64,000 nt of DNA, from NCBI RefSeq assembly GCF_003334315.1, contig NZ_QOWR01000019.1; one strand, given 5' to 3'. Below are positions 21,556-60,393 of this stretch, piece by piece; positions within the stretch are counted from its first letter, which is position 1, and every line of letters starts with the position of its first letter. Made by a program: the position numbers and the translations under genes. Under the pieces are notes generated by a model. That model saw nothing but the letters and a program-made list of their open reading frames with translations. It was not told the DNA's origin and did no database searches. This DNA is from Escherichia coli. GTDB taxonomy: Bacteria; Pseudomonadota; Gammaproteobacteria; Enterobacterales; Enterobacteriaceae.

Positions 21556-21590
21556 ATAAAAATGCCAGCCGATCGGGCTGGCATTTTGCC
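21556..21590. terminator. bidirectional rho-independent terminator between macB and cspD
   Basis: perfect hairpin aatgccagcc-gatcg-ggctggcatt flanked by A-run and T-run. Confidence 0.75.
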
Positions 21591-21619
21591 TTTAGGATGT
21601 ACACAATGAGACAGAAGAG

Positions 21620-21844
21620 CTATGCGACTGCCGCTTCTACTTCGACGGGCACAATAACACTGGCGTGATTGCCTTTTGGCCCCTGGTGGACATCAAACTG
21701 AACGGATTGTCCAGCTTTTAGCGTTCTGTAACCATCCATCTGAATGGTGGAATAATGAGCGAAAATATCTTCGCCGCCGCCTTCAGGGCAGATGAAACCA
21801 AACCCTTTGGCATTGTTGAACCACTTAACAGTACCCTTTTCCAT
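21620..21844 (-). CDS. cspD: cold-shock-domain protein CspD (stationary-phase replication inhibitor)
   Basis: CSD motifs KGTVKWFNNAKGFGFI; 74 aa from internal ATG. Confidence 0.92.
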   Translation of the reverse strand: MEKGTVKWFNNAKGFGFICPEGGGEDIFAHYSTIQMDGYRTLKAGQSVQFDVHQGPKGNHASVIVPVEVEAAVA

Positions 21845-22166
21845 GCTTCGACATCCTTCGCAAATCTTATACAAGTAAGATGGAATAAACCGGGGTCAGA
21901 GAGGGGGCTGTTCAAAACCTCGCCAACTCTAGAAATACAATTTAGAGAATTAGGGCGAGCCGTCAAGCGTTTGACAGGGGCCAGGGGGCAGGTATGAATC
22001 AAAAATTTGAAGCAGTTAACGCTATTGACAGGAATGTGACAGATGTCGCTGATGCCAACGATAGATGATAGTTATCTATCATGTGGAGTAGATTGGTCAG
22101 GCAAATAAGCTCTTGTCAGCGGCAGGGCGTTCTGCCGATAACCGTAACCGAAGATGATAACTGACA

Positions 22167-22487: not shown

Positions 22488-22517
22488 ATGCAGGCATAAA
22501 AATTGGGGGAGGTGCCT

Positions 22518-24794
22518 ATGCTCAATCAAGAACTGGAACTCAGTTTAAATATGGCTTTCGCCAGAGCGCGCGAGCACCGTCATGAGTTTATGACCGTCGA
22601 GCACTTGTTACTGGCGCTGCTCAGTAACCCATCTGCCCGGGAGGCGCTGGAAGCGTGTTCTGTGGATTTGGTTGCGCTCCGTCAGGAACTGGAAGCCTTT
22701 ATTGAACAAACCACACCCGTTCTGCCTGCCAGTGAAGAGGAGCGCGATACACAGCCGACGCTGAGTTTTCAGCGTGTACTGCAACGTGCGGTCTTCCATG
22801 TCCAGTCCTCCGGTCGCAATGAGGTTACCGGTGCAAACGTTCTGGTCGCTATCTTTAGCGAACAGGAGTCGCAGGCGGCATATCTGTTGCGTAAACATGA
22901 AGTCAGCCGTCTCGATGTGGTGAACTTTATCTCTCATGGCACGCGTAAAGACGAGCCGACACAGTCTTCTGATCCTGGCAGCCAGCCAAACAGCGAAGAA
23001 CAAGCTGGTGGGGAGGAACGTATGGAGAATTTCACGACGAACCTGAACCAGCTTGCGCGTGTGGGCGGAATCGACCCACTGATTGGTCGTGAGAAAGAGC
23101 TGGAGCGTGCTATTCAGGTTCTCTGCCGTCGCCGTAAAAACAACCCGCTGCTGGTGGGGGAGTCTGGTGTCGGTAAAACCGCGATTGCAGAAGGTCTTGC
23201 CTGGCGAATTGTTCAGGGTGATGTGCCGGAAGTGATGGCTGACTGTACGATTTATTCTCTCGATATCGGTTCTCTGTTAGCGGGCACAAAATATCGCGGC
23301 GACTTTGAAAAACGTTTTAAAGCGTTGCTCAAGCAGCTGGAGCAGGACACTAACAGCATCCTGTTTATTGATGAGATCCACACCATTATCGGTGCGGGTG
23401 CAGCGTCTGGTGGTCAGGTCGATGCGGCTAACCTGATCAAACCGTTGCTCTCCAGCGGTAAAATTCGCGTAATTGGTTCGACAACCTATCAGGAGTTCAG
23501 CAACATTTTCGAGAAAGACCGTGCTCTGGCGCGTCGCTTCCAGAAAATTGATATTACTGAACCGTCGATCGAAGAAACTGTTCAAATCATCAATGGCCTG
23601 AAACCGAAGTATGAAGCGCACCACGACGTGCGTTATACCGCAAAAGCGGTGCGTGCGGCGGTAGAGCTGGCGGTGAAATACATTAACGATCGTCATCTGC
23701 CGGATAAAGCCATTGATGTTATCGACGAAGCGGGCGCTCGCGCACGTCTGATGCCGGTAAGCAAACGCAAGAAAACCGTTAATGTGGCGGATATTGAGTC
23801 CGTGGTGGCCCGTATTGCACGCATTCCAGAGAAGAGTGTTTCTCAGAGTGACCGCGATACCCTGAAAAACCTCGGCGATCGCCTGAAAATGCTGGTCTTC
23901 GGCCAGGATAAAGCCATTGAGGCGCTGACTGAAGCCATTAAGATGGCGCGTGCAGGTTTAGGTCACGAACATAAACCGGTCGGTTCGTTCCTGTTTGCCG
24001 GTCCTACCGGGGTCGGGAAAACAGAGGTGACGGTACAGCTTTCGAAAGCGTTGGGCATTGAGCTTCTGCGCTTTGATATGTCCGAGTATATGGAACGCCA
24101 TACCGTCAGCCGTCTGATTGGTGCGCCTCCGGGATACGTTGGTTTTGATCAGGGCGGTTTGCTGACTGATGCGGTCATCAAGCATCCACATGCGGTTCTG
24201 CTGCTGGACGAAATCGAGAAAGCGCACCCTGACGTGTTCAATATTCTGTTGCAGGTGATGGACAACGGTACGCTGACCGATAACAACGGACGCAAAGCGG
24301 ACTTCCGTAACGTGGTGCTGGTGATGACCACCAACGCCGGGGTACGTGAAACTGAGCGTAAATCCATTGGTCTTATCCACCAGGATAACAGCACCGATGC
24401 GATGGAAGAGATCAAGAAGATCTTTACACCGGAATTCCGTAACCGTCTCGACAACATTATCTGGTTTGATCATCTGTCAACCGACGTGATCCATCAGGTG
24501 GTGGATAAATTCATCGTCGAGTTGCAGGTTCAGCTGGATCAGAAAGGTGTTTCTCTGGAAGTGAGCCAGGAAGCGCGTAACTGGCTGGCCGAGAAAGGTT
24601 ACGACCGGGCAATGGGCGCTCGTCCGATGGCGCGTGTCATCCAGGACAACCTGAAAAAACCGCTCGCCAACGAACTGCTGTTTGGTTCGCTGGTGGACGG
24701 CGGTCAGGTCACCGTCGCACTGGATAAAGCGAAAAATGAGCTGACTTACGGATTCCAGAGTGCACAAAAGCACAAGGCGGAAGCAGCGCATTAA
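22518..24794 (+). CDS. clpA: ATP-dependent Clp protease ATP-binding subunit ClpA
   Basis: two AAA+ modules (GESGVGKT and GPTGVGKT Walker A); 758 aa from MLNQELE. Confidence 0.95.
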
Positions 24795-24818
24795 TCTGAT
24801 TGTCAGGTAGGTTGGTCA

Positions 24819-24856
24819 AGTCCGTAATCTCGAAAGAGGTTACGGACTTTTTATTT
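24819..24856 (+). terminator. rho-independent terminator of clpA
   Basis: hairpin agtccgtaa..ttacggact followed by ttttatttat. Confidence 0.7.
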
Positions 24857-25005
24857 ATGGGGTGGAACGGTGAAAACCCTATTTTTGGAGGTGAAGGTAA
24901 GTTGTTGATAATTAGTGCTGCTGGAAGGTAAGGATAAAAAAGGGTGCTGCAGGAGAATGGGATGGTTTTGCTTTATTAACAACGGGCTAAACGTGTAGTA
25001 TTTGA

Positions 25006-25210
25006 GTTCACTGCCGTACAGGCAGCTTAGAAAAACCTACCGTCTTGGCTAGCGGTTGCAGCGAACGTTCACTGCCGTACAGGCAGCTTAGAAAGGAACA
25101 ATCTTGCAAAGGCTGTGAAAGTTGGCGTTCACTGCCGTACAGGCAGCTTAGAAATTCACAGGTAACATACTCCACCCACCATGTTCACTGCCGTACAGAC
25201 AGATAAAATG
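25006..25210 (+). CRISPR. orphan type I-F CRISPR array remnant: 3 intact 28-bp repeats plus 1 degenerate terminal repeat
   Basis: repeat gttcactgccgtacaggcagcttagaaa at 25006-25033, 25067-25094, 25127-25154; degenerate copy gttcactgccgtacagacagataaaatg at 25183-25210; spacers of 33, 32 and 28 nt; no cas genes in window. Confidence 0.92.
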
Positions 25211-25211
25211 C

Positions 25212-25241
25212 GAAAAAAAAGCTCGCACTTTCGTACGAGCT
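25212..25241 (-). terminator. rho-independent terminator of serW
   Basis: hairpin agctcg..cgagct with A8 on + strand (U-run on minus) directly 3' of tRNA. Confidence 0.7.
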
Positions 25242-25253
25242 CTTCTTTAAATA

Positions 25254-25341
25254 TGGCGGTGAGGGGGGGATTCGAACCCCCGATACGTTGCCGTATACAC
25301 ACTTTCCAGGCGTGCTCCTTCAGCCACTCGGACACCTCACC
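25254..25341 (-). tRNA. serW: tRNA-Ser (long variable arm, 88 nt, encoded CCA)
   Basis: reverse complement reads ggtgaggtgtccgagtggctgaaggagcacgcctggaaagtgtgtatacggcaacgtatcgggggttcgaatccccccctcaccgcca. Confidence 0.95.
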
Positions 25342-25525
25342 AAATTGTTTTGCTGCCAAACCTCATGGGTGGCAACGGGGCGCTACTATAGGGAGTTGGA
25401 GTAAAACGGTCAAGAAGAATTTTAATGATAATTATTGTTTGCTCATACTGTAAACAACTTGTGCAGTATATCTACATCGAGACAAGTTATGGACTTATAC
25501 TTCCAAAGTACTTCATACATATCAC

Positions 25526-25556
25526 AAAATAAAAAGGCCGGTTAAACCGACCTTTT
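25526..25556 (-). terminator. rho-independent terminator of infA
   Basis: hairpin around ggccggttaaaccgacc followed by U-run on minus strand. Confidence 0.6.
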
Positions 25557-25594: not shown

Positions 25595-25816
<222 letters not shown>

Positions 25817-32593: not shown

Positions 32594-35500
32594 TTGAGCC
32601 AGGAATACACTGAAGACAAAGAAGTCACATTGACAAAGTTAAGTAGCGGCCGCCGCCTTCTGGAGGCGTTGCTGATCCTTATTGTCCTGTTTGCCGTCTG
32701 GTTGATGGCTGCCTTACTAAGCTTTAACCCTTCGGACCCCAGCTGGTCGCAAACGGCCTGGCATGAACCTATCCATAATTTAGGTGGGATGCCCGGTGCG
32801 TGGTTGGCAGATACGCTGTTCTTTATTTTTGGCGTGATGGCTTACACCATTCCCGTCATTATTGTCGGCGGTTGTTGGTTTGCCTGGCGTCATCAGTCCA
32901 GCGACGAATACATTGATTATTTTGCCGTTTCGCTACGCATCATTGGCGTTTTGGCGCTCATCCTTACCTCCTGTGGTCTGGCGGCAATCAACGCTGACGA
33001 TATCTGGTATTTTGCCTCCGGTGGCGTCATTGGCAGCTTACTAAGCACTACGCTACAACCACTGCTACACAGTAGCGGGGGAACTATTGCGCTGCTCTGC
33101 GTTTGGGCAGCGGGCCTGACGTTGTTCACCGGTTGGTCATGGGTGACCATTGCTGAAAAACTCGGCGGCTGGATTTTAAACATTCTCACCTTCGCCAGTA
33201 ATCGTACCCGTCGCGATGATACCTGGGTCGATGAAGATGAGTATGAAGACGACGAAGAGTATGAAGATGAAAATCACGGCAAACAGCATGAATCACGCCG
33301 TGCCCGTATTCTTCGCGGCGCGCTAGCGCGTCGTAAACGGTTGGCGGAAAAATTCATTAATCCGATGGGGCGGCAAACAGACGCTGCGTTGTTCTCCGGT
33401 AAGCGGATGGATGATGACGAAGAGATTACCTACACTGCACGCGGTGTGGCTGCCGACCCGGACGACGTCCTATTTTCGGGCAATCGTGCAACGCAGCCAG
33501 AATATGACGAATACGATCCATTATTAAACGGTGCGCCAATTACCGAACCTGTCGCTGTAGCAGCTGCTGCTACCACGGCGACACAAAGCTGGGCTGCGCC
33601 GGTTGAACCTGTGACTCAGACGCCGCCTGTTGCCTCTGTTGATGTTCCACCTGCGCAACCTACAGTAGCCTGGCAGCCTGTACCGGGTCCACAAACGGGA
33701 GAGCCGGTTATTGCTCCTGCACCGGAAGGTTACCCACAGCAGTCACAATATGCGCAGCCTGCATTGCAATATAATGAGCCGCTGCAACAACCAGTACAGC
33801 CGCAGCAGCCGTATTATGCACCTGCAGCTGAACAACCTGCGCAACAGCCGTATTATGCCCCTGCGCCAGAACAACCGGTGGCAGGTAACGCCTGGCAAGC
33901 CGAAGAGCAGCAATCCACTTTTGCTCCACAGTCTACATACCAGACTGAGCAAACTTATCAGCAGCCAGCCGCTCAGGAGCCGTTGTACCAACAGCCGCAA
34001 CCCGTTGAACAGCAGCCTGTTGTGGAGCCTGAACCCGTTGTAGAAGAGACAAAACCCGCGCGTCCGCCGCTTTACTACTTTGAAGAAGTTGAAGAGAAGC
34101 GAGCCCGTGAACGTGAACAACTTGCGGCCTGGTATCAACCGATTCCAGAACCGGTTAAAGAACCAGAACCGATCAAATCTTCGCTGAAAGCACCTTCTGT
34201 TGCAGCAGTACCTCCAGTAGAAGCCGCTGCCGCTGTTTCCCCGCTGGCATCTGGCGTGAAAAAAGCGACACTGGCGACGGGGGCTGCCGCAACCGTTGCC
34301 GCGCCAGTCTTCAGTCTGGCAAATAGCGGTGGACCGCGTCCTCAGGTCAAAGAGGGGATTGGTCCGCAGTTGCCACGACCGAAACGTATCCGCGTGCCAA
34401 CTCGTCGTGAACTGGCGTCTTACGGTATTAAGCTGCCCTCACAGCGTGCGGCGGAAGAAAAAGCCCGTGAAGCCCAGCGCAATCAGTACGATTCTGGCGA
34501 TCAGTACAACGATGATGAAATCGATGCGATGCAGCAGGATGAACTGGCACGTCAGTTCGCCCAGACACAGCAGCAACGCTATGGCGAACAGTATCAACAT
34601 GATGTGCCCGTAAACGCAGAAGATGCAGATGCTGCGGCAGAGGCTGAACTGGCTCGTCAGTTTGCGCAAACTCAACAACAACGTTATTCCGGCGAACAAC
34701 CGGCTGGGGCGAATCCGTTCTCGCTGGATGATTTTGAATTTTCGCCAATGAAAGCGTTGCTGGATGATGGTCCACACGAACCGTTGTTTACGCCAATTGT
34801 TGAACCTGTACAGCAGCCGCAACAACCGGTTGCACCGCAGCAGCAATATCAGCAGCCGCAACAACCAGTTCCGCCGCAGCCGCAGTATCAGCAGCCACAA
34901 CAGCCGGTTGCGCCGCAGCCACAATATCAGCAGCCGCAACAACCGGTTGCGCCACAGCAGCAATATCAGCAGCCGCAACAACCGGTTGCGCCGCAGCAGC
35001 AGTATCAGCAGCCACAACAGCCAGTTGCGCCACAACCGCAGGATACCCTGCTTCATCCGCTGTTGATGCGTAATGGCGACAGCCGTCCGTTGCATAAACC
35101 GACGACGCCGCTGCCTTCTCTGGATTTGCTGACACCGCCGCCGAGCGAAGTGGAGCCGGTAGATACCTTTGCGCTTGAACAAATGGCTCGTCTGGTGGAA
35201 GCGCGTCTGGCTGATTTCCGTATTAAAGCCGATGTCGTCAATTACTCTCCGGGGCCGGTTATCACTCGCTTTGAACTTAACCTGGCTCCTGGCGTAAAAG
35301 CGGCGCGCATTTCTAACTTGTCACGGGACCTTGCCCGTTCACTTTCGACGGTGGCGGTGCGTGTCGTTGAAGTTATTCCTGGCAAACCCTATGTAGGTCT
35401 GGAGTTACCAAATAAAAAACGACAAACCGTTTATCTGCGCGAAGTTTTGGATAACGCCAAATTCCGCGATAATCCGTCGCCATTAACCGTGGTGCTGGGT

Positions 35501-36583
35501 AAAGATATCGCCGGTGAGCCGGTGGTTGCCGATCTGGCGAAAATGCCGCACTTGTTGGTTGCGGGGACTACCGGTTCCGGTAAATCTGTCGGTGTGAACG
35601 CGATGATCCTGAGCATGCTTTATAAAGCACAGCCAGAAGATGTGCGTTTCATCATGATCGACCCGAAAATGCTGGAGCTTTCGGTGTATGAAGGCATTCC
35701 GCACCTGTTAACGGAAGTCGTTACTGATATGAAAGATGCCGCCAACGCGCTGCGCTGGTGTGTTAACGAGATGGAGCGTCGGTATAAACTGATGTCTGCG
35801 CTGGGTGTGCGTAATCTGGCGGGTTATAACGAAAAAATTGCTGAAGCCGATCGCATGATGCGTCCGATTCCAGACCCGTACTGGAAGCCGGGTGACAGTA
35901 TGGATGCCCAGCATCCGGTGCTGAAAAAAGAACCATACATTGTGGTGTTGGTTGACGAATTTGCCGACCTGATGATGACGGTAGGTAAAAAAGTGGAAGA
36001 GCTGATAGCACGTCTGGCGCAAAAAGCCCGTGCCGCGGGTATCCACCTCGTACTGGCAACTCAGCGTCCATCGGTTGATGTTATTACTGGTCTGATTAAA
36101 GCGAATATTCCGACCCGTATCGCCTTTACCGTATCCAGTAAGATTGACTCACGTACCATTCTTGATCAGGCTGGCGCGGAATCACTGCTGGGGATGGGGG
36201 ATATGCTCTACTCTGGGCCGAACTCCACGTTGCCGGTACGTGTCCATGGTGCTTTTGTTCGCGATCAGGAAGTTCATGCCGTGGTGCAGGACTGGAAAGC
36301 GCGTGGTCGCCCACAGTATGTTGATGGCATCACTTCCGACAGTGAAAGCGAAGGTGGCGCGGGCGGTTTCGATGGCGCTGAAGAACTGGATCCGTTGTTC
36401 GATCAGGCGGTGCAGTTTGTCACTGAAAAACGCAAAGCGTCAATTTCTGGCGTACAGCGTCAGTTCCGCATTGGTTATAACCGTGCAGCGCGTATTATCG
36501 AACAGATGGAAGCGCAGGGGATTGTCAGCGAACAGGGGCACAACGGTAATCGTGAAGTGCTGGCCCCACCGCCGTTTGACTAA
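32594..36583 (+). CDS. ftsK: DNA translocase FtsK
   Basis: N-terminal TM domain, long Pro/Gln-rich linker, C-terminal FtsK/SpoIIIE motor (GTTGSGKS) and gamma domain; TTG start; 1329 aa. Confidence 0.95.
34810..35042 (+). repeat. in-frame 39-bp tandem repeat x6 in the ftsK linker ([10 protein letters not shown][QP]QY units)
   Basis: six near-identical 13-codon units read directly from sequence. Confidence 0.85.
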
Positions 36584-36592
36584 TTAATGCAT

Positions 36593-36626
36593 TGCCGGAT
36601 AAGGCGCGGTAGCGTCGCATCCGGCA
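36593..36626. repeat. REP element in ftsK-lolA intergenic region
   Basis: tgccggataaggcgcggtagcgtcgcatccggca matches REP consensus. Confidence 0.8.
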
Positions 36627-36737
36627 CTCTATCAACTGAAAATTCAGTATTTTCTTCTTTCCTCAAGCTGATTATTAGCCTGGAATAGAGAGTAGAGGGA
36701 ACTCCCGATCGGGAGTGACGTAATTTGAGGAATAATG

Positions 36738-37349
36738 ATGAAAAAAATTGCCATCACCTGTGCATTACTCTCAAGCTTAGTAGCAAGCAGCGTTTGGGCT
36801 GATGCCGCAAGCGATCTGAAAAGCCGCCTGGATAAAGTCAGCAGCTTCCACGCCAGCTTCACACAAAAAGTGACTGATGGTAGCGGCGCGGCGGTGCAGG
36901 AAGGTCAGGGCGATCTGTGGGTGAAACGTCCAAACTTATTCAACTGGCATATGACACAACCTGATGAAAGCATTCTGGTTTCTGACGGTAAAACACTGTG
37001 GTTCTATAACCCGTTCGTTGAGCAAGCTACGGCAACCTGGCTGAAAGATGCCACCGGTAATACGCCGTTTATGCTGATTGCCCGCAACCAGTCCAGCGAC
37101 TGGCAGCAGTACAATATCAAACAGAATGGCGATGACTTTGTCCTGACGCCGAAAGCCAGCAATGGCAATCTGAAGCAGTTCACCATTAACGTGGGACGTG
37201 ATGGCACAATCCATCAGTTTAGCGCGGTGGAGCAGGACGATCAGCGCAGCAGTTATCAACTGAAATCCCAGCAAAATGGGGCTGTGGATGCAGCGAAATT
37301 TACCTTCACCCCGCCGCAAGGCGTCACGGTAGATGATCAACGTAAGTAG
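36738..37349 (+). CDS. lolA: outer-membrane lipoprotein carrier protein LolA
   Basis: 203-aa ORF with signal peptide [21 protein letters not shown]. Confidence 0.93.
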
Positions 37350-37359
37350 AGGCACCTGA

Positions 37360-38703
37360 GTGAGCAATCTGTCGCTCGATTTTTCGGATAATACTTTTCA
37401 ACCTCTGGCCGCGCGTATGCGGCCAGAAAATTTAGCACAGTATATCGGCCAGCAACATTTGCTGGCTGCGGGGAAGCCGCTGCCGCGCGCTATCGAAGCC
37501 GGGCATTTGCATTCGATGATCCTCTGGGGGCCACCGGGTACCGGCAAAACAACCCTCGCTGAAGTGATTGCCCGCTATGCGAACGCTGATGTGGAACGTA
37601 TTTCTGCCGTCACCTCTGGCGTGAAAGAGATTCGCGAGGCGATCGAGCGCGCCCGGCAAAACCGCAATGCAGGTCGCCGCACTATTCTTTTTGTTGACGA
37701 AGTTCACCGTTTCAACAAAAGCCAGCAGGATGCATTTCTGCCACATATTGAAGACGGCACCATCACTTTTATTGGCGCAACCACTGAAAACCCGTCGTTT
37801 GAGCTTAATTCGGCACTGCTTTCCCGTGCCCGTGTCTATCTGTTGAAATCCCTGAGTACAGAGGATATTGAGCAAGTACTAACTCAGGCGATGGAAGACA
37901 AAACCCGTGGCTATGGTGGTCAGGATATTGTTCTGCCAGATGAAACACGACGCGCCATTGCTGAACTGGTGAATGGCGACGCGCGCCGGGCGTTAAATAC
38001 GCTGGAAATGATGGCGGATATGGCCGAAGTCGATGATAGCGGTAAGCGGGTCCTGAAGCCTGAATTACTGACCGAAATCGCCGGTGAACGTAGCGCCCGC
38101 TTTGATAACAAAGGCGATCGCTTTTACGATCTCATTTCCGCACTGCATAAGTCGGTACGTGGTAGCGCACCCGATGCGGCGCTGTACTGGTATGCGCGAA
38201 TTATTACCGCTGGTGGCGATCCGTTATATGTCGCGCGTCGCTGTTTGGCGATAGCGTCTGAAGATGTGGGTAACGCTGATCCACGAGCGATGCAGGTGGC
38301 AATTGCGGCCTGGGATTGCTTTACTCGCGTTGGCCCGGCGGAAGGTGAACGCGCCATTGCTCAGGCGATTGTTTACCTGGCCTGCGCGCCAAAAAGCAAC
38401 GCTGTCTACACTGCGTTTAAAGCCGCGCTGGCCGATGCTCGCGAACGCCCGGATTATGACGTACCGGTTCATTTGCGTAATGCGCCGACGAAATTAATGA
38501 AGGAAATGGGCTACGGGCAGGAATATCGTTACGCTCATGATGAAGCAAACGCTTATGCTGCCGGTGAGGTTTACTTCCCGCCGGAAATAGCACAAACACG
38601 CTATTATTTCCCGACAAACAGGGGCCTTGAAGGCAAGATTGGCGAAAAGCTCGCCTGGCTGGCTGAACAGGATCAAAATAGCCCCATAAAACGCTACCGT
38701 TAA
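37360..38703 (+). CDS. rarA: replication-associated recombination protein A (AAA+ ATPase, MgsA)
   Basis: Walker [13 protein letters not shown] start; 447 aa. Confidence 0.92.
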
Positions 38704-40324: not shown

Positions 40325-42769
40325 ATGAAAACGAAAATCCCTGATGCGGTATTGGCTGCTGAGGTGAGTCGCCGTGGTTTGGTAAAAACGACAGCGATCG
40401 GCGGCCTGGCAATGGCCAGCAGCGCATTAACATTACCTTTTAGTCGGATTGCGCACGCTGTCGATAGCGCCATTCCAACAAAATCAGACGAAAAGGTTAT
40501 CTGGAGCGCCTGTACAGTTAACTGTGGTAGTCGCTGCCCGCTACGTATGCACGTCGTGGACGGTGAAATCAAATATGTCGAAACGGACAATACCGGCGAT
40601 GACAATTACGACGGCCTGCACCAGGTTCGCGCCTGCCTGCGTGGGCGTTCCATGCGTCGCCGTGTCTACAATCCGGACCGCCTGAAATATCCGATGAAAC
40701 GAGTCGGGGCGCGCGGTGAAGGCAAATTCGAGCGCATTAGCTGGGAAGAAGCCTACGACATCATCGCGACCAATATGCAGCGCCTGATCAAAGAGTACGG
40801 CAACGAGTCTATCTATCTGAACTATGGCACCGGTACGCTGGGCGGCACCATGACCCGCTCCTGGCCGCCGGGAAATACCCTGGTCGCGCGGCTGATGAAC
40901 TGCTGCGGCGGCTATCTGAACCATTACGGCGACTACTCCTCCGCGCAAATTGCGGAAGGTTTGAACTATACCTACGGCGGCTGGGCAGATGGCAACAGCC
41001 CGTCGGATATCGAAAACAGTAAGCTGGTAGTGCTGTTTGGTAATAACCCTGGCGAAACGCGAATGAGTGGCGGTGGGGTGACTTACTATCTTGAACAGGC
41101 ACGCCAGAAATCTAATGCCCGCATGATCATCATCGATCCGCGCTATACCGACACCGGTGCCGGGCGCGAAGATGAGTGGATCCCTATTCGTCCGGGAACA
41201 GATGCCGCACTGGTTAACGGTCTGGCGTACGTCATGATCACTGAAAACCTGGTGGATCAGGCATTCCTCGATAAATATTGCGTTGGCTACGATGAGAAAA
41301 CCCTGCCAGTCAGTGCGCCGAAAAATGGCCACTATAAAGCTTATATTCTGGGTGAAGGGCCAGATGGCGTGGCTAAAACGCCGGAATGGGCCTCGCAAAT
41401 CACTGGTGTTCCGGCAGACAAAATCATCAAATTGGCTCGTGAAATCGGTAGTACCAAACCGGCGTTTATCAGCCAGGGATGGGGCCCGCAGCGTCACGCT
41501 AACGGTGAAATCGCAACCCGTGCTATCTCGATGCTGGCGATTCTGACCGGTAACGTTGGTATTAACGGAGGCAACAGCGGCGCGCGTGAAGGTTCATACA
41601 GCTTACCGTTTGTCCGTATGCCGACCTTGGAAAACCCGATCCAGACCAGCATTTCGATGTTTATGTGGACCGATGCCATTGAACGTGGCCCGGAAATGAC
41701 GGCGCTGCGTGATGGTGTACGCGGGAAAGATAAGCTGGATGTGCCGATCAAAATGATCTGGAACTATGCCGGTAACTGCCTGATTAACCAGCATTCTGAA
41801 ATCAACCGTACCCATGAAATCCTTCAGGATGATAAGAAGTGCGAGCTGATTGTGGTTATCGACTGCCACATGACCTCATCGGCGAAATATGCTGACATCC
41901 TGCTGCCTGACTGCACCGCTTCCGAACAGATGGACTTTGCGCTGGATGCATCCTGCGGGAATATGTCTTACGTGATTTTCAACGATCAGGTGATTAAACC
42001 GCGCTTTGAATGTAAGACCATCTATGAAATGACCAGCGAACTGGCAAAACGTCTTGGCGTTGAGCAACAGTTTACTGAAGGCCGTACCCAGGAAGAGTGG
42101 ATGCGGCATCTGTATGCCCAGTCGCGGGAAGCGATTCCTGAACTGCCAACGTTTGAAGAGTTCCGCAAGCAGGGGATCTTTAAAAAGCGCGACCCACAAG
42201 GGCATCACGTTGCTTATAAAGCCTTCCGTGAAGATCCGCAGGCAAACCCACTGACTACGCCATCGGGCAAAATTGAGATTTATTCGCAGGCGCTGGCTGA
42301 CATTGCCGCTACCTGGGAATTGCCTGAAGGCGATGTGATCGATCCACTGCCGATCTACACGCCGGGCTTTGAAAGTTATCAGGATCCGCTGAACAAACAG
42401 TATCCGCTGCAGCTTACAGGTTTCCACTATAAATCTCGCGTTCACTCAACTTACGGCAACGTTGATGTGCTGAAAGCGGCTTGCCGTCAGGAAATGTGGA
42501 TCAACCCGCTTGATGCCCAAAAACGCGGTATCCACAACGGCGATAAAGTCAGGATCTTTAACGATCGTGGTGAGGTTCATATTGAGGCGAAAGTGACGCC
42601 ACGAATGATGCCGGGTGTGGTCGCACTGGGTGAAGGTGCCTGGTATGACCCGGATGCAAAACGTGTCGATAAGGGTGGTTGTATTAACGTACTGACCACT
42701 CAACGTCCGTCTCCTCTCGCTAAGGGGAATCCGTCACATACAAACCTTGTTCAGGTTGAAAAGGTGTAA
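40325..42769 (+). CDS. dmsA: DMSO reductase catalytic subunit A (molybdopterin, Tat-exported)
   Basis: twin-arginine signal SRRGLVKTTAIGG; N-terminal Cys cluster CTVNCGSRCP; 814 aa. Confidence 0.95.
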   Translation: MKTKIPDAVLAAEVSRRGLVKTTAIGGLAMASSALTLPFSRIAHAVDSAIPTKSDEKVIWSACTVNCGSRCPLRMHVVDGEIKYVETDNTGDDNYDGLHQVRACLRGRSMRRRVYNPDRLKYPMKRVGARGEGKFERISWEEAYDIIATNMQRLIKEYGNESIYLNYGTGTLGGTMTRSWPPGNTLVARLMNCCGGYLNHYGDYSSAQIAEGLNYTYGGWADGNSPSDIENSKLVVLFGNNPGETRMSGGGVTYYLEQARQKSNARMIIIDPRYTDTGAGREDEWIPIRPGTDAALVNGLAYVMITENLVDQAFLDKYCVGYDEKTLPVSAPKNGHYKAYILGEGPDGVAKTPEWASQITGVPADKIIKLAREIGSTKPAFISQGWGPQRHANGEIATRAISMLAILTGNVGINGGNSGAREGSYSLPFVRMPTLENPIQTSISMFMWTDAIERGPEMTALRDGVRGKDKLDVPIKMIWNYAGNCLINQHSEINRTHEILQDDKKCELIVVIDCHMTSSAKYADILLPDCTASEQMDFALDASCGNMSYVIFNDQVIKPRFECKTIYEMTSELAKRLGVEQQFTEGRTQEEWMRHLYAQSREAIPELPTFEEFRKQGIFKKRDPQGHHVAYKAFREDPQANPLTTPSGKIEIYSQALADIAATWELPEGDVIDPLPIYTPGFESYQDPLNKQYPLQLTGFHYKSRVHSTYGNVDVLKAACRQEMWINPLDAQKRGIHNGDKVRIFNDRGEVHIEAKVTPRMMPGVVALGEGAWYDPDAKRVDKGGCINVLTTQRPSPLAKGNPSHTNLVQVEKV

Positions 42770-46594: not shown

Positions 46595-48025
46595 ATGGCT
46601 GGGAATGTTCAGGAAAAACAGTTGCGATGGTACAACATTGCGCTGATGTCTTTTATCACTGTCTGGGGTTTTGGCAACGTTGTTAATAACTATGCCAACC
46701 AGGGGCTGGTGGTTGTTTTTTCATGGGTGTTTATCTTTGCACTCTATTTCACACCTTATGCGCTAATTGTTGGTCAGTTAGGCTCGACCTTCAAAGATGG
46801 GAAGGGCGGGGTCAGTACCTGGATTAAACACACGATGGGACCCGGACTGGCTTATCTCGCCGCGTGGACCTACTGGGTGGTGCATATTCCCTATCTGGCA
46901 CAAAAACCCCAGGCAATTCTGATTGCGCTCGGTTGGGCGATGAAAGGCGACGGTTCGCTAATCAAAGAATATTCAGTCGTAGCGTTACAGGGGTTAACGC
47001 TGGTGCTGTTTATCTTCTTTATGTGGGTTGCTTCACGCGGTATGAAATCGCTGAAAATCGTCGGTTCTGTGGCAGGGATTGCTATGTTTGTTATGTCGCT
47101 CCTGTATGTGGCGATGGCGGTAACCGCGCCTGCAATTACTGAAGTGCATATTGCGACCACAAACATTACCTGGGAAACGTTCATTCCTCATATCGACTTT
47201 ACCTACATTACCACTATTTCAATGCTGGTTTTCGCGGTTGGCGGAGCAGAGAAGATTTCTCCTTACGTTAATCAAACGCGCAACCCAGGAAAAGAATTTC
47301 CAAAAGGGATGTTATGCCTGGCGGTGATGGTTGCGGTTTGTGCCATTCTGGGCTCGCTGGCGATGGGGATGATGTTTGATTCGCGTAATATCCCGGATGA
47401 CTTAATGACCAACGGTCAGTATTACGCCTTTCAGAAGCTGGGCGAGTATTACAACATGGGTAATACTTTAATGGTGATTTACGCCATTGCGAATACCCTG
47501 GGACAAGTAGCGGCGCTGGTATTCTCGATTGATGCCCCGCTTAAAGTGCTATTAGGTGATGCTGACAGCAAATATATTCCAGCCAGTTTATGTCGTACCA
47601 ACGCTTCTGGTACGCCCGTTAATGGCTATTTTCTGACCCTGGTACTGGTGGCGATTCTGATTATGCTGCCGACTCTCGGCATTGGTGATATGAACAATCT
47701 CTATAAATGGCTGTTGAACCTTAATTCGGTAGTGATGCCGCTGCGTTATTTATGGGTATTTGTTGCATTTATTGCAGTCGTTCGCTTGGCGCAGAAATAT
47801 AAACCAGAATATGTCTTTATTCGTAATAAGCCTCTGGCAATGACCGTCGGGATTTGGTGTTTTGCCTTTACCGCCTTTGCCTGTTTGACGGGGATCTTCC
47901 CGAAAATGGAAGCCTTCACTGCAGAGTGGACCTTCCAGTTGGCGCTGAATGTTGCAACGCCGTTTGTGCTGGTAGGATTAGGACTGATATTCCCGCTGCT
48001 GGCGCGTAAAGCGAATAGTAAATAA
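46595..48025 (+). CDS. ycaM: APC-family amino acid transporter YcaM
   Basis: polytopic ORF; start at ATG 46595 (MAGNVQEK) gives 476 aa; supplied ORF is 5'-extended. Confidence 0.88.
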   Translation: MAGNVQEKQLRWYNIALMSFITVWGFGNVVNNYANQGLVVVFSWVFIFALYFTPYALIVGQLGSTFKDGKGGVSTWIKHTMGPGLAYLAAWTYWVVHIPYLAQKPQAILIALGWAMKGDGSLIKEYSVVALQGLTLVLFIFFMWVASRGMKSLKIVGSVAGIAMFVMSLLYVAMAVTAPAITEVHIATTNITWETFIPHIDFTYITTISMLVFAVGGAEKISPYVNQTRNPGKEFPKGMLCLAVMVAVCAILGSLAMGMMFDSRNIPDDLMTNGQYYAFQKLGEYYNMGNTLMVIYAIANTLGQVAALVFSIDAPLKVLLGDADSKYIPASLCRTNASGTPVNGYFLTLVLVAILIMLPTLGIGDMNNLYKWLLNLNSVVMPLRYLWVFVAFIAVVRLAQKYKPEYVFIRNKPLAMTVGIWCFAFTAFACLTGIFPKMEAFTAEWTFQLALNVATPFVLVGLGLIFPLLARKANSK

Positions 48026-59460: not shown

Positions 59461-59628
59461 ATGAACAACGGGCAATAAATAGCCAAATCTTTCTTTATCA
59501 AAACGTCGGCACATTGTCGGCGTTTTTTTTCGGACCTTGTGAGTCATTTTGATTAATGGTAGCGTCGCTTGTCAATGTAAGTTGTTGATACATAATATTT
59601 ATATATGATTAATCAACGGATGATTCAC

Positions 59629-60393
59629 ATGAAGAATACTAAATTACTGCTGGCGATTGCGACCTCTGCAGCATTACTGACAGGGTGTCAAAATACCCAC
59701 GGTATTGATACCAATATGGCTATCAGCTCCGGTTTAAATGCCTATAAAGCAGCAACATTAAGCGATGCCGATGCAAAAGCGATTGCCAATCAGGGCTGTG
59801 CCGAAATGGACAGCGGCAATCAAGTCGCAAGTAAATCCAGCAAGTACGGTAAACGTCTGGCAAAAATCGCCAAAGCATTGGGTAACAATATTAATGGCAC
59901 GCCGGTCAACTATAAGGTTTATATGACCAGCGACGTCAACGCATGGGCGATGGCGAACGGCTGTGTTCGTGTCTACAGTGGCCTGATGGACATGATGAAT
60001 GACAACGAAATTGAAGGCGTTCTGGGCCATGAACTGGGCCACGTCGCGTTGGGTCACTCGCTGGCTGAAATGAAAGCTTCTTATGCGATCGTTGCCGCAC
60101 GCGATGCCATTTCAGCTACCAGCGGTGTGGCTTCCCAGCTTTCCCGCTCACAATTAGGTGATATCGCAGAAGGCGCTATCAATGCTAAATACTCCCGTGA
60201 TAAAGAGTCCGAAGCAGATGATTTCTCCTTTGATCTGTTGAAGAAACGTGGCATCAGCACCCAGGGGCTGGTTGGCAGCTTTGAAAAACTGGCTAGCCTG
60301 GATGGCGGTCGCACCCAGTCCATGTTTGACTCTCACCCACCATCAACAGAGCGTGCGCAACACATCCGTGATCGTATCGCCTCTGGTAAGTAA
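59629..60393 (+). CDS. ycaL: M48-family metalloprotease lipoprotein YcaL
   Basis: lipobox LLTGC and zinc motif HELGH; 254 aa from second in-frame ATG. Confidence 0.9.
   Translation: MKNTKLLLAIATSAALLTGCQNTHGIDTNMAISSGLNAYKAATLSDADAKAIANQGCAEMDSGNQVASKSSKYGKRLAKIAKALGNNINGTPVNYKVYMTSDVNAWAMANGCVRVYSGLMDMMNDNEIEGVLGHELGHVALGHSLAEMKASYAIVAARDAISATSGVASQLSRSQLGDIAEGAINAKYSRDKESEADDFSFDLLKKRGISTQGLVGSFEKLASLDGGRTQSMFDSHPPSTERAQHIRDRIASGK

Follow-up and report, generated by a model that had tools for sequence, protein, structure and literature searches.

A cas-less type I-F CRISPR array between clpA and serW of Escherichia coli carries spacers matching I-F cas genes

The window analysed, a stretch of 64,000 nucleotides (64 kb) of Escherichia coli core chromosome from artM to ycaI, contains a short CRISPR array between clpA (22503-24794, + strand), its upstream flanking gene, and the tRNA-Ser(GGA) gene serW (25254..25341, - strand); infA (25595-25813, - strand) lies beyond serW. 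clpA is followed by an intrinsic terminator (24818..24849, + strand) with a 14-bp stem and a T run (RNA fold -21.9 kcal/mol, z -5.7), to which the role of insulating the array from clpA read-through is assigned. On the serW side, the array is bounded by the serW terminator (25213..25248, - strand), located by terminator scan. A preliminary description of this DNA had the array jammed between the two terminators. It does lie between them, but on the clpA side a CRISPR leader of 156 nt (24850..25005, + strand) intervenes.

Exact-string searches of both strands found the perfect 28-nt I-F repeat GTTCACTGCCGTACAGGCAGCTTAGAAA three times in the 64-kb window, each time on the + strand, and no further exact copy on either strand. 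Sequence reading, Rfam and exact-string search placed repeat 1 (I-F/CRISPR-4) at 25006..25033, repeat 2 at 25067..25094 and repeat 3 at 25127..25154. Each is followed on the + strand by a unique spacer: S1 (33 nt, AACCTACCGTCTTGGCTAGCGGTTGCAGCGAAC) at 25034..25066, S2 (32 nt, GGAACAATCTTGCAAAGGCTGTGAAAGTTGGC) at 25095..25126 and S3 (28 nt, TTCACAGGTAACATACTCCACCCACCAT) at 25155..25182. S1 and S2 were assigned as anti-cas2-3 spacers from their matches to cas3f, and S3 as a decayed anti-cas1 spacer from comparison with the K-12 spacer and its match to cas1f. The array closes with a degenerate terminal repeat, R4 (GTTCACTGCCGTACAGACAGATAAAATG, 25183..25210, + strand), in which the first 16 nt are intact and six mismatches to the repeat fall mostly toward the 3' end. 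Three perfect repeats with one 3'-degenerate copy, within 25006-25210, and spacers of 33, 32 and 28 nt had been reported in the preliminary description, and both observations were reproduced exactly. A repeat search of the window returned this single 4-copy family (spacing 61/60/56). The array was not reported by Tandem Repeats Finder, as expected for spaced repeats.

The Rfam family CRISPR-DR4 (RF01317) matched the three perfect copies on the + strand with 50.1 bits each (E 1.3e-9); since the gathering score is 35, the array is not a chance arrangement. The repeat fits the GTTCACTGCCGTAyAGGCAGCTwAGAAA type of I-F systems and is identical to the repeats beside cas1f in strains JA0266 and B7A. 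Its RNA folds into the hairpin CUGCC-GUACA-GGCAG with a 5-bp stem and a 5-nt loop (-8.6 kcal/mol). In R4, the exchange G17A, which is also present in K-12, breaks a stem pair and weakens the fold from -8.6 to -1.4 kcal/mol. As in other arrays of this class, unique spacers of ~32 nt are framed by a leader and, at the opposite end, a degenerate repeat. The array reads from left to right, as shown by the + strand of the Rfam matches, by the conserved leader next to clpA and by the degenerate repeat towards serW. S1 is leader-proximal and therefore the newest spacer; S3 is the oldest.

Leaders of this class are defined as A/T-rich and situated at one array end. An alignment of the present one with JA0266, B7A and K-12 shows near identity over the last ~110 nt and no variation in the final 33 nt. 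The leader presumably includes the promoter as well as the signals for integration. A strict sigma-70 scan of the leader found no + strand site; in a relaxed scan, the best candidate was a weak TTGGAG-16-GATAAT at 24885-24912 (8/12).

Several annotation features of the region were recorded. Mechanical ORFs of 53-55 aa cross the array at 25008-25175 (- strand) and 25045-25206 (+ strand). In strain 3347558, a RefSeq 'hypothetical protein' (WP_012602745.1) overlaps the homologous orphan array on the other strand (L011, 1633-2031), and in strain CP53 the mini-array carries no CRISPR feature. The ORF call and the missing CRISPR feature are annotation artefacts or gaps. That RefSeq skips such mini-arrays, or in one strain puts a hypothetical protein there, is a practical annotation issue.

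Over 63.8 kb, the window is 99.89% identical to CP53, and the array region is 100% identical. The 52 SNPs relative to CP53 are not evenly spread and lie in a few patches (35191-37554, 41310-42685 and 47644-47989), a pattern that suggests small recombination tracts. At 59605-60393 (+ strand) the window has an intact ORF of 262 aa; its CP53 counterpart, ycaL, is annotated as frameshifted and has 7 extra nt (CCTGATT) at the equivalent of window position 59814. ftsK contains in-frame tandem repeats of 39 nt (13 codons, Gln/Pro-rich; 5.7 copies, 88% matches) at 34811-35031 and 33801-33876, as well as a 12-nt insertion relative to CP53 at 34283-34294; repeats and insertion are consistent with the variable FtsK linker. 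cspD with its 5' region (21556-21949, - strand) gave a sub-threshold match to the Rfam cspA thermoregulator (41.6 bits, gathering score 78, E 4e-8).

For detection of cas genes, the six I-F Cas proteins of JA0266 were compared with the 64-kb window by tblastn. Nothing was found below E 0.1, in agreement with the earlier statement that cas1, cas2-3 and csy are absent from the 64 kb. The Cas2-3 matches closest to significance (E 0.13 and 0.87) were S2 and S1 themselves, translated as Cas2-3 peptide fragments. The annotation of the same 64 kb in CP53 lists core genes only. In JA0266 and B7A, the I-F operon sits between the clpA-side array and serW; in the window this site is empty, and the sequence becomes homologous to the cas-positive locus again at 25213, the serW terminator, which corresponds to position 23444 of that locus (L001), just 3' of cas6f. 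As cas1, cas2-3, csy1-3 and cas6f are missing beside it, the array is filed as an orphan, located between clpA and serW/infA at a site without I-F cas genes. A remnant of the second array of cas-positive strains, between serW and infA, was also considered and rejected, as the window has no repeat-like sequence there; 25423-25530 stands in place of the ~1.2 kb of leader and array of JA0266.

Spacer targets were sought in the cas-positive locus of JA0266 and, for the second E. coli allele group, in that of B7A. The E. coli I-F PAM is a leader-proximal GG on the other strand, i.e. 5'-CC (PMC3506596). The preliminary description mentioned that some spacers of orphan I-F arrays at clpA-infA match I-F cas genes and left open whether those of the window do; all three match I-F cas1 or cas2-3 of cas-positive E. 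coli. S1 matches cas3f (cas2-3) of B7A at 31/33 positions (L003, 4582-4614, minus strand) and that of JA0266 at 29/33, in both cases with CC directly 5'. S2 matches B7A cas3f at 31/32 positions (L003, 4664-4695, plus strand) with CC directly 5', and JA0266 cas3f at 29/32 positions with TC as flank. The target of S3 is cas1, on the minus strand and after CC. Relative to B7A, the mismatches of S1 (positions 11 and 33) and S2 (position 19) are all outside the PAM-proximal seed; relative to the LF82/JA0266-type allele, position 2 of the S1 seed is mismatched. The mismatches of S3, at positions 4 and 6, are PAM-proximal. S1 and S2 have their protospacers on opposite strands in cas2-3, separated by ~50 bp and lying ~1.45 kb from that of S3.

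As a control, 300 shuffles per spacer were searched. The best shuffled matches had 10-12 mismatches for S1 and 10-11 for S2, compared with 1-2 observed, and 6-9 for the ungapped 28-nt S3. Concatenated spacers gave nothing meaningful against 72,556 plasmids (one chance match in Streptomyces, 24 nt, E=9) and no match against 50,697 phages. In the search against I-F cas genes, phages and plasmids that had been proposed earlier, the best spacer matches lay in I-F cas genes from related strains, next to 5'-CC, and the spacers had no other targets. A degenerate S2 pattern, run against 100,044 species-representative genomes, retrieved one third cas2-3 allele, from Escherichia sp. E1V33, which has CC PAMs and is 2 nt off S1 and 2 nt off S2. 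No perfectly matching cas donor allele for S1 or S2 was found in the two E. coli allele groups (1-4 mismatches) or in E1V33, and S1-S3 are absent from the arrays of JA0266 and B7A themselves. Escape evolution at the protospacers was considered and rejected, as divergence between the JA0266 and B7A alleles is not enriched there: seven anti-cas protospacers with their PAMs differ at 13/239 positions (5.4%), compared with 5.8% over cas1-cas2-3 as a whole, and the 10 differences in 114 nt of the S1-S2 block are equalled or exceeded by 22% of sliding windows.

The irregular spacer lengths had been ascribed to decay or recombination. This applies to S3, but not to S1. The K-12-derived strain MFDpir has a single spacer of 32 nt (TTCACAGGTAACATACTCCACCCGCCCACCAT) at this locus, from which S3 of the window differs by the loss of 4 internal nt (CGCC) inside a CCAC/CCCAC repeat. 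With CC directly 5', the full-length 32-nt spacer aligns with cas1f at 30/32 positions in JA0266 and 29/32 in B7A; the 28-nt length of S3 is therefore a product of decay. All 33 nt of S1 are contiguous with the protospacer directly after CC, and the 33rd base agrees with two of three alleles, so S1 looks like an ordinary 33-nt acquisition and not like a damaged spacer. Judged by these alignments, S3 is the only one of the three spacers whose length reflects decay.

For comparison of array content across strains, as proposed earlier, eleven orphan arrays were sampled from other strains. All eleven share a common leader and the terminal repeat tail ...CAGATAAAATG; the clpA-proximal array of cas-positive strains ends ...CAGTATTCACA instead. 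Content varied: S1-S2-S3 occurs in CP53 and FDAARGOS_1277, S2-S3 in DSM 101139, S2 alone in UPEC132, S3 alone in K-12 and F1 E4, S1 alone in ETEC1722, and other spacers in S42, AR_0104 and 3347558. S1 and S2 are identical across several divergent strains. All nine distinct spacers (9/9) match cas1f or cas3f, always after CC and with 0-3 mismatches to the better-matching cas allele. The interval that separates the orphan array from serW carries one or two annotated 'RtT sRNA' elements in ETEC1722 (L012, 1860-1994) and some other strains, and none in the window.

The population set comprised 5,426 complete E. coli genomes. I-F cas1/cas2-3 is present in 241 of them (about 4%), 201 being within 1% of JA0266/LF82 and 40 at ~94.8% (B7A type). 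The 244 cas1/cas2-3 matches in these genomes are all chromosomal, usually with one per genome. The three-spacer array (at least 80% of it) occurs in about 348 of the 5,426 genomes, and in a spread sample drawn from the 2,839 genomes that matched, the K-12-type array with S3 only was the most frequent class. Array matches were found at 2,974 places in the E. coli collection, one of them on a record labelled plasmid.

We consider it likely that the orphan I-F array is aimed at the I-F cas genes themselves and keeps the cell free of I-F systems. For the source strain, we infer transcription, processing and interference from the locus and from the literature, as follows. The array alone would do nothing, because the host is presumably without Cas6f, Csy complex and Cas2-3; the conserved leader would drive its transcription. 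Upon delivery of an I-F cas operon by a mobile element, the incoming Cas6f would cut the resident transcript at the repeat hairpins, with predicted crRNAs of ~60 nt consisting of CUUAGAAA, the spacer and a 20-nt hairpin. The incoming Csy complex would take up the S1 and S2 crRNAs, Cas2-3 would be recruited to the protospacers next to CC in the cas1 and cas2-3 genes of that operon, and the incoming DNA, which itself encodes Cas2-3, would be degraded. Primed acquisition of additional spacers would reinforce the defence. With incoming DNA degraded and further spacers acquired, the cell would stay without I-F systems.

The three spacers are not expected to contribute equally. S1 and S2, with perfect repeats on both sides, intact seeds and a CC PAM, seem competent to act on a B7A-type operon. 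The commoner LF82-type operon appears to be a poorer target, for S1 because of its position-2 mismatch and for S2 because of its TC flank, which under the PAM rules of PMC3506596 should be poor for interference. Since the S1 seed mismatch and the S2 TC flank concern the LF82/JA0266-type allele (201 of the 241 cas-positive genomes), protection may be allele-specific. S3 is probably impaired by its 4-nt deletion, its PAM-proximal mismatches and the weakened hairpin of its 3' repeat.

More tentatively, S1-S2-S3 could be a stepwise record of repelled invasions, in which the old cas1 spacer S3 primed the acquisition of S2 and then of S1; S1 and S2 both fit the minority B7A-type allele best. We regard this extension as rather doubtful. 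If it is true, transient I-F systems continue to add spacers to orphan arrays in nature, protection is allele-specific, and the common LF82-type allele partly escapes via the S1 seed mismatch and the S2 TC flank. Laboratory work has already demonstrated that spacers are acquired from cas plasmids by priming, so such a record would extend known biology and would not represent a new kind.

Three other explanations of the array were weighed. According to one, which we judge unlikely, it is an inert fossil: anti-cas spacers were gained by accident under a resident I-F system, self-targeting selected for cas loss, and the remainder is functionless and slowly decaying. Such decay would account for the 4 nt missing from S3 and the stem-breaking G17A in the terminal repeat; the leader is without a strong promoter match, the spacers are 1-4 nt off every cas allele sampled, and loss by self-targeting has been suggested before (Diez-Villasenor et al. 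2010, as cited in PMC2886076). However, repeats 1-3 are perfect, the leader is conserved to the last base beside repeat 1, and S1 and S2 have stayed identical in several divergent strains. The terminal repeat common to orphan arrays, unlike that of cas-positive strains, argues against many independent recent deletions (argument in PMC2886076), and interference by native orphan arrays has been reported experimentally, according to the review PMC8616872. A self-targeting origin and present-day protection can both hold and are not exclusive.

It is far less probable, indeed very improbable, that the array is not an orphan and that an I-F cas operon outside the window, in another part of the genome, serves it. 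In favour of this, the view of the genome is limited to 64 kb, and Pseudomonas aeruginosa has isolated arrays far from their cas genes (PMC13142298). Nonetheless, the usual E. coli operon site between array and serW is empty in the window, only 241 of the 5,426 genomes have any such genes, with matches that are exclusively chromosomal and usually single, and the spacers would target a resident I-F system. The chance of dealing with fortuitous or non-CRISPR repeats, such as REP-like elements or a coding repeat, is close to nil. The mechanical ORFs across the array and the RefSeq 'hypothetical protein' in 3347558 could be cited in its favour, but it is refuted by three CRISPR-DR4 matches well above the gathering score, by the identity of the repeat with those of cas-adjacent arrays and by the spacer matches to cas genes at the PAM. 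The reading retained is that of an orphan array directed against I-F cas genes. More generally, the system shows that an array can be maintained in the absence of cas genes as a weapon against CRISPR-Cas, and it helps explain why I-F cas genes occur in only about 4% of complete genomes. To this, the window adds a worked example, with three spacers mapped to cas1/cas2-3 together with their PAMs and a 28-nt spacer explained, and a hint that one of the two cas allele groups is the better fit for the array.

Among known systems, the complete E. coli I-F system (LF82, UTI89, B7A, JA0266) is arranged as clpA - array - cas1, cas2-3, csy1-3, cas6f - serW - array - infA. It shares the repeat, a homologous leader and the chromosomal site with the window, which in contrast lacks all six cas genes with their terminator, has no second array and ends in a different terminal repeat. 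The arrays of the complete system have 10-15 spacers of 32 nt, none of them equal to S1-S3. Orphan or isolated I-F arrays of P. aeruginosa likewise occur away from or without cas genes and have conserved leaders (PMC13142298). They differ in being described as horizontally moved arrays that serve a resident I-F system, or as remnants, and targeting of cas genes is not reported for them in PMC13142298.

Touchon & Rocha 2010 (PMC2886076) described, at the same locus and under the name 'CRISPR3 anti-CRISPR', short arrays with only cognate-cas-matching spacers in genomes without those genes, and proposed that such arrays stop invasion by elements bearing a functional system. As relayed in PMC8616872 and PMC13142298, Almendros et al. 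2016 showed that native orphan arrays interfere with plasmids bearing the full I-F cas set and prime the acquisition of more spacers; the former source, a review from the Mojica laboratory, also describes native orphan arrays as constitutively expressed. The term 'remnant' used in the preliminary description undersells the locus, since in the literature such arrays count as functional anti-cas elements and not as debris. The closest known counterparts are the E. coli orphan CRISPR4 'anti-cas' arrays (Almendros, Guzman, Garcia-Martinez & Mojica 2016, Nat Microbiol 1:16081), which share with the window the species, the clpA-serW/infA locus, the 28-nt repeat, the degenerate terminal repeat, the lack of adjacent cas genes and the cas1/cas2-3 spacers at the I-F PAM. 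There is no categorical difference: the window has the S1-S2-S3 variant with S3 shortened by 4 nt, and K-12 has S3 alone. The array is confirmed as a member of this already known E. coli orphan CRISPR4 anti-cas type, which was described in 2010 and tested in 2016.
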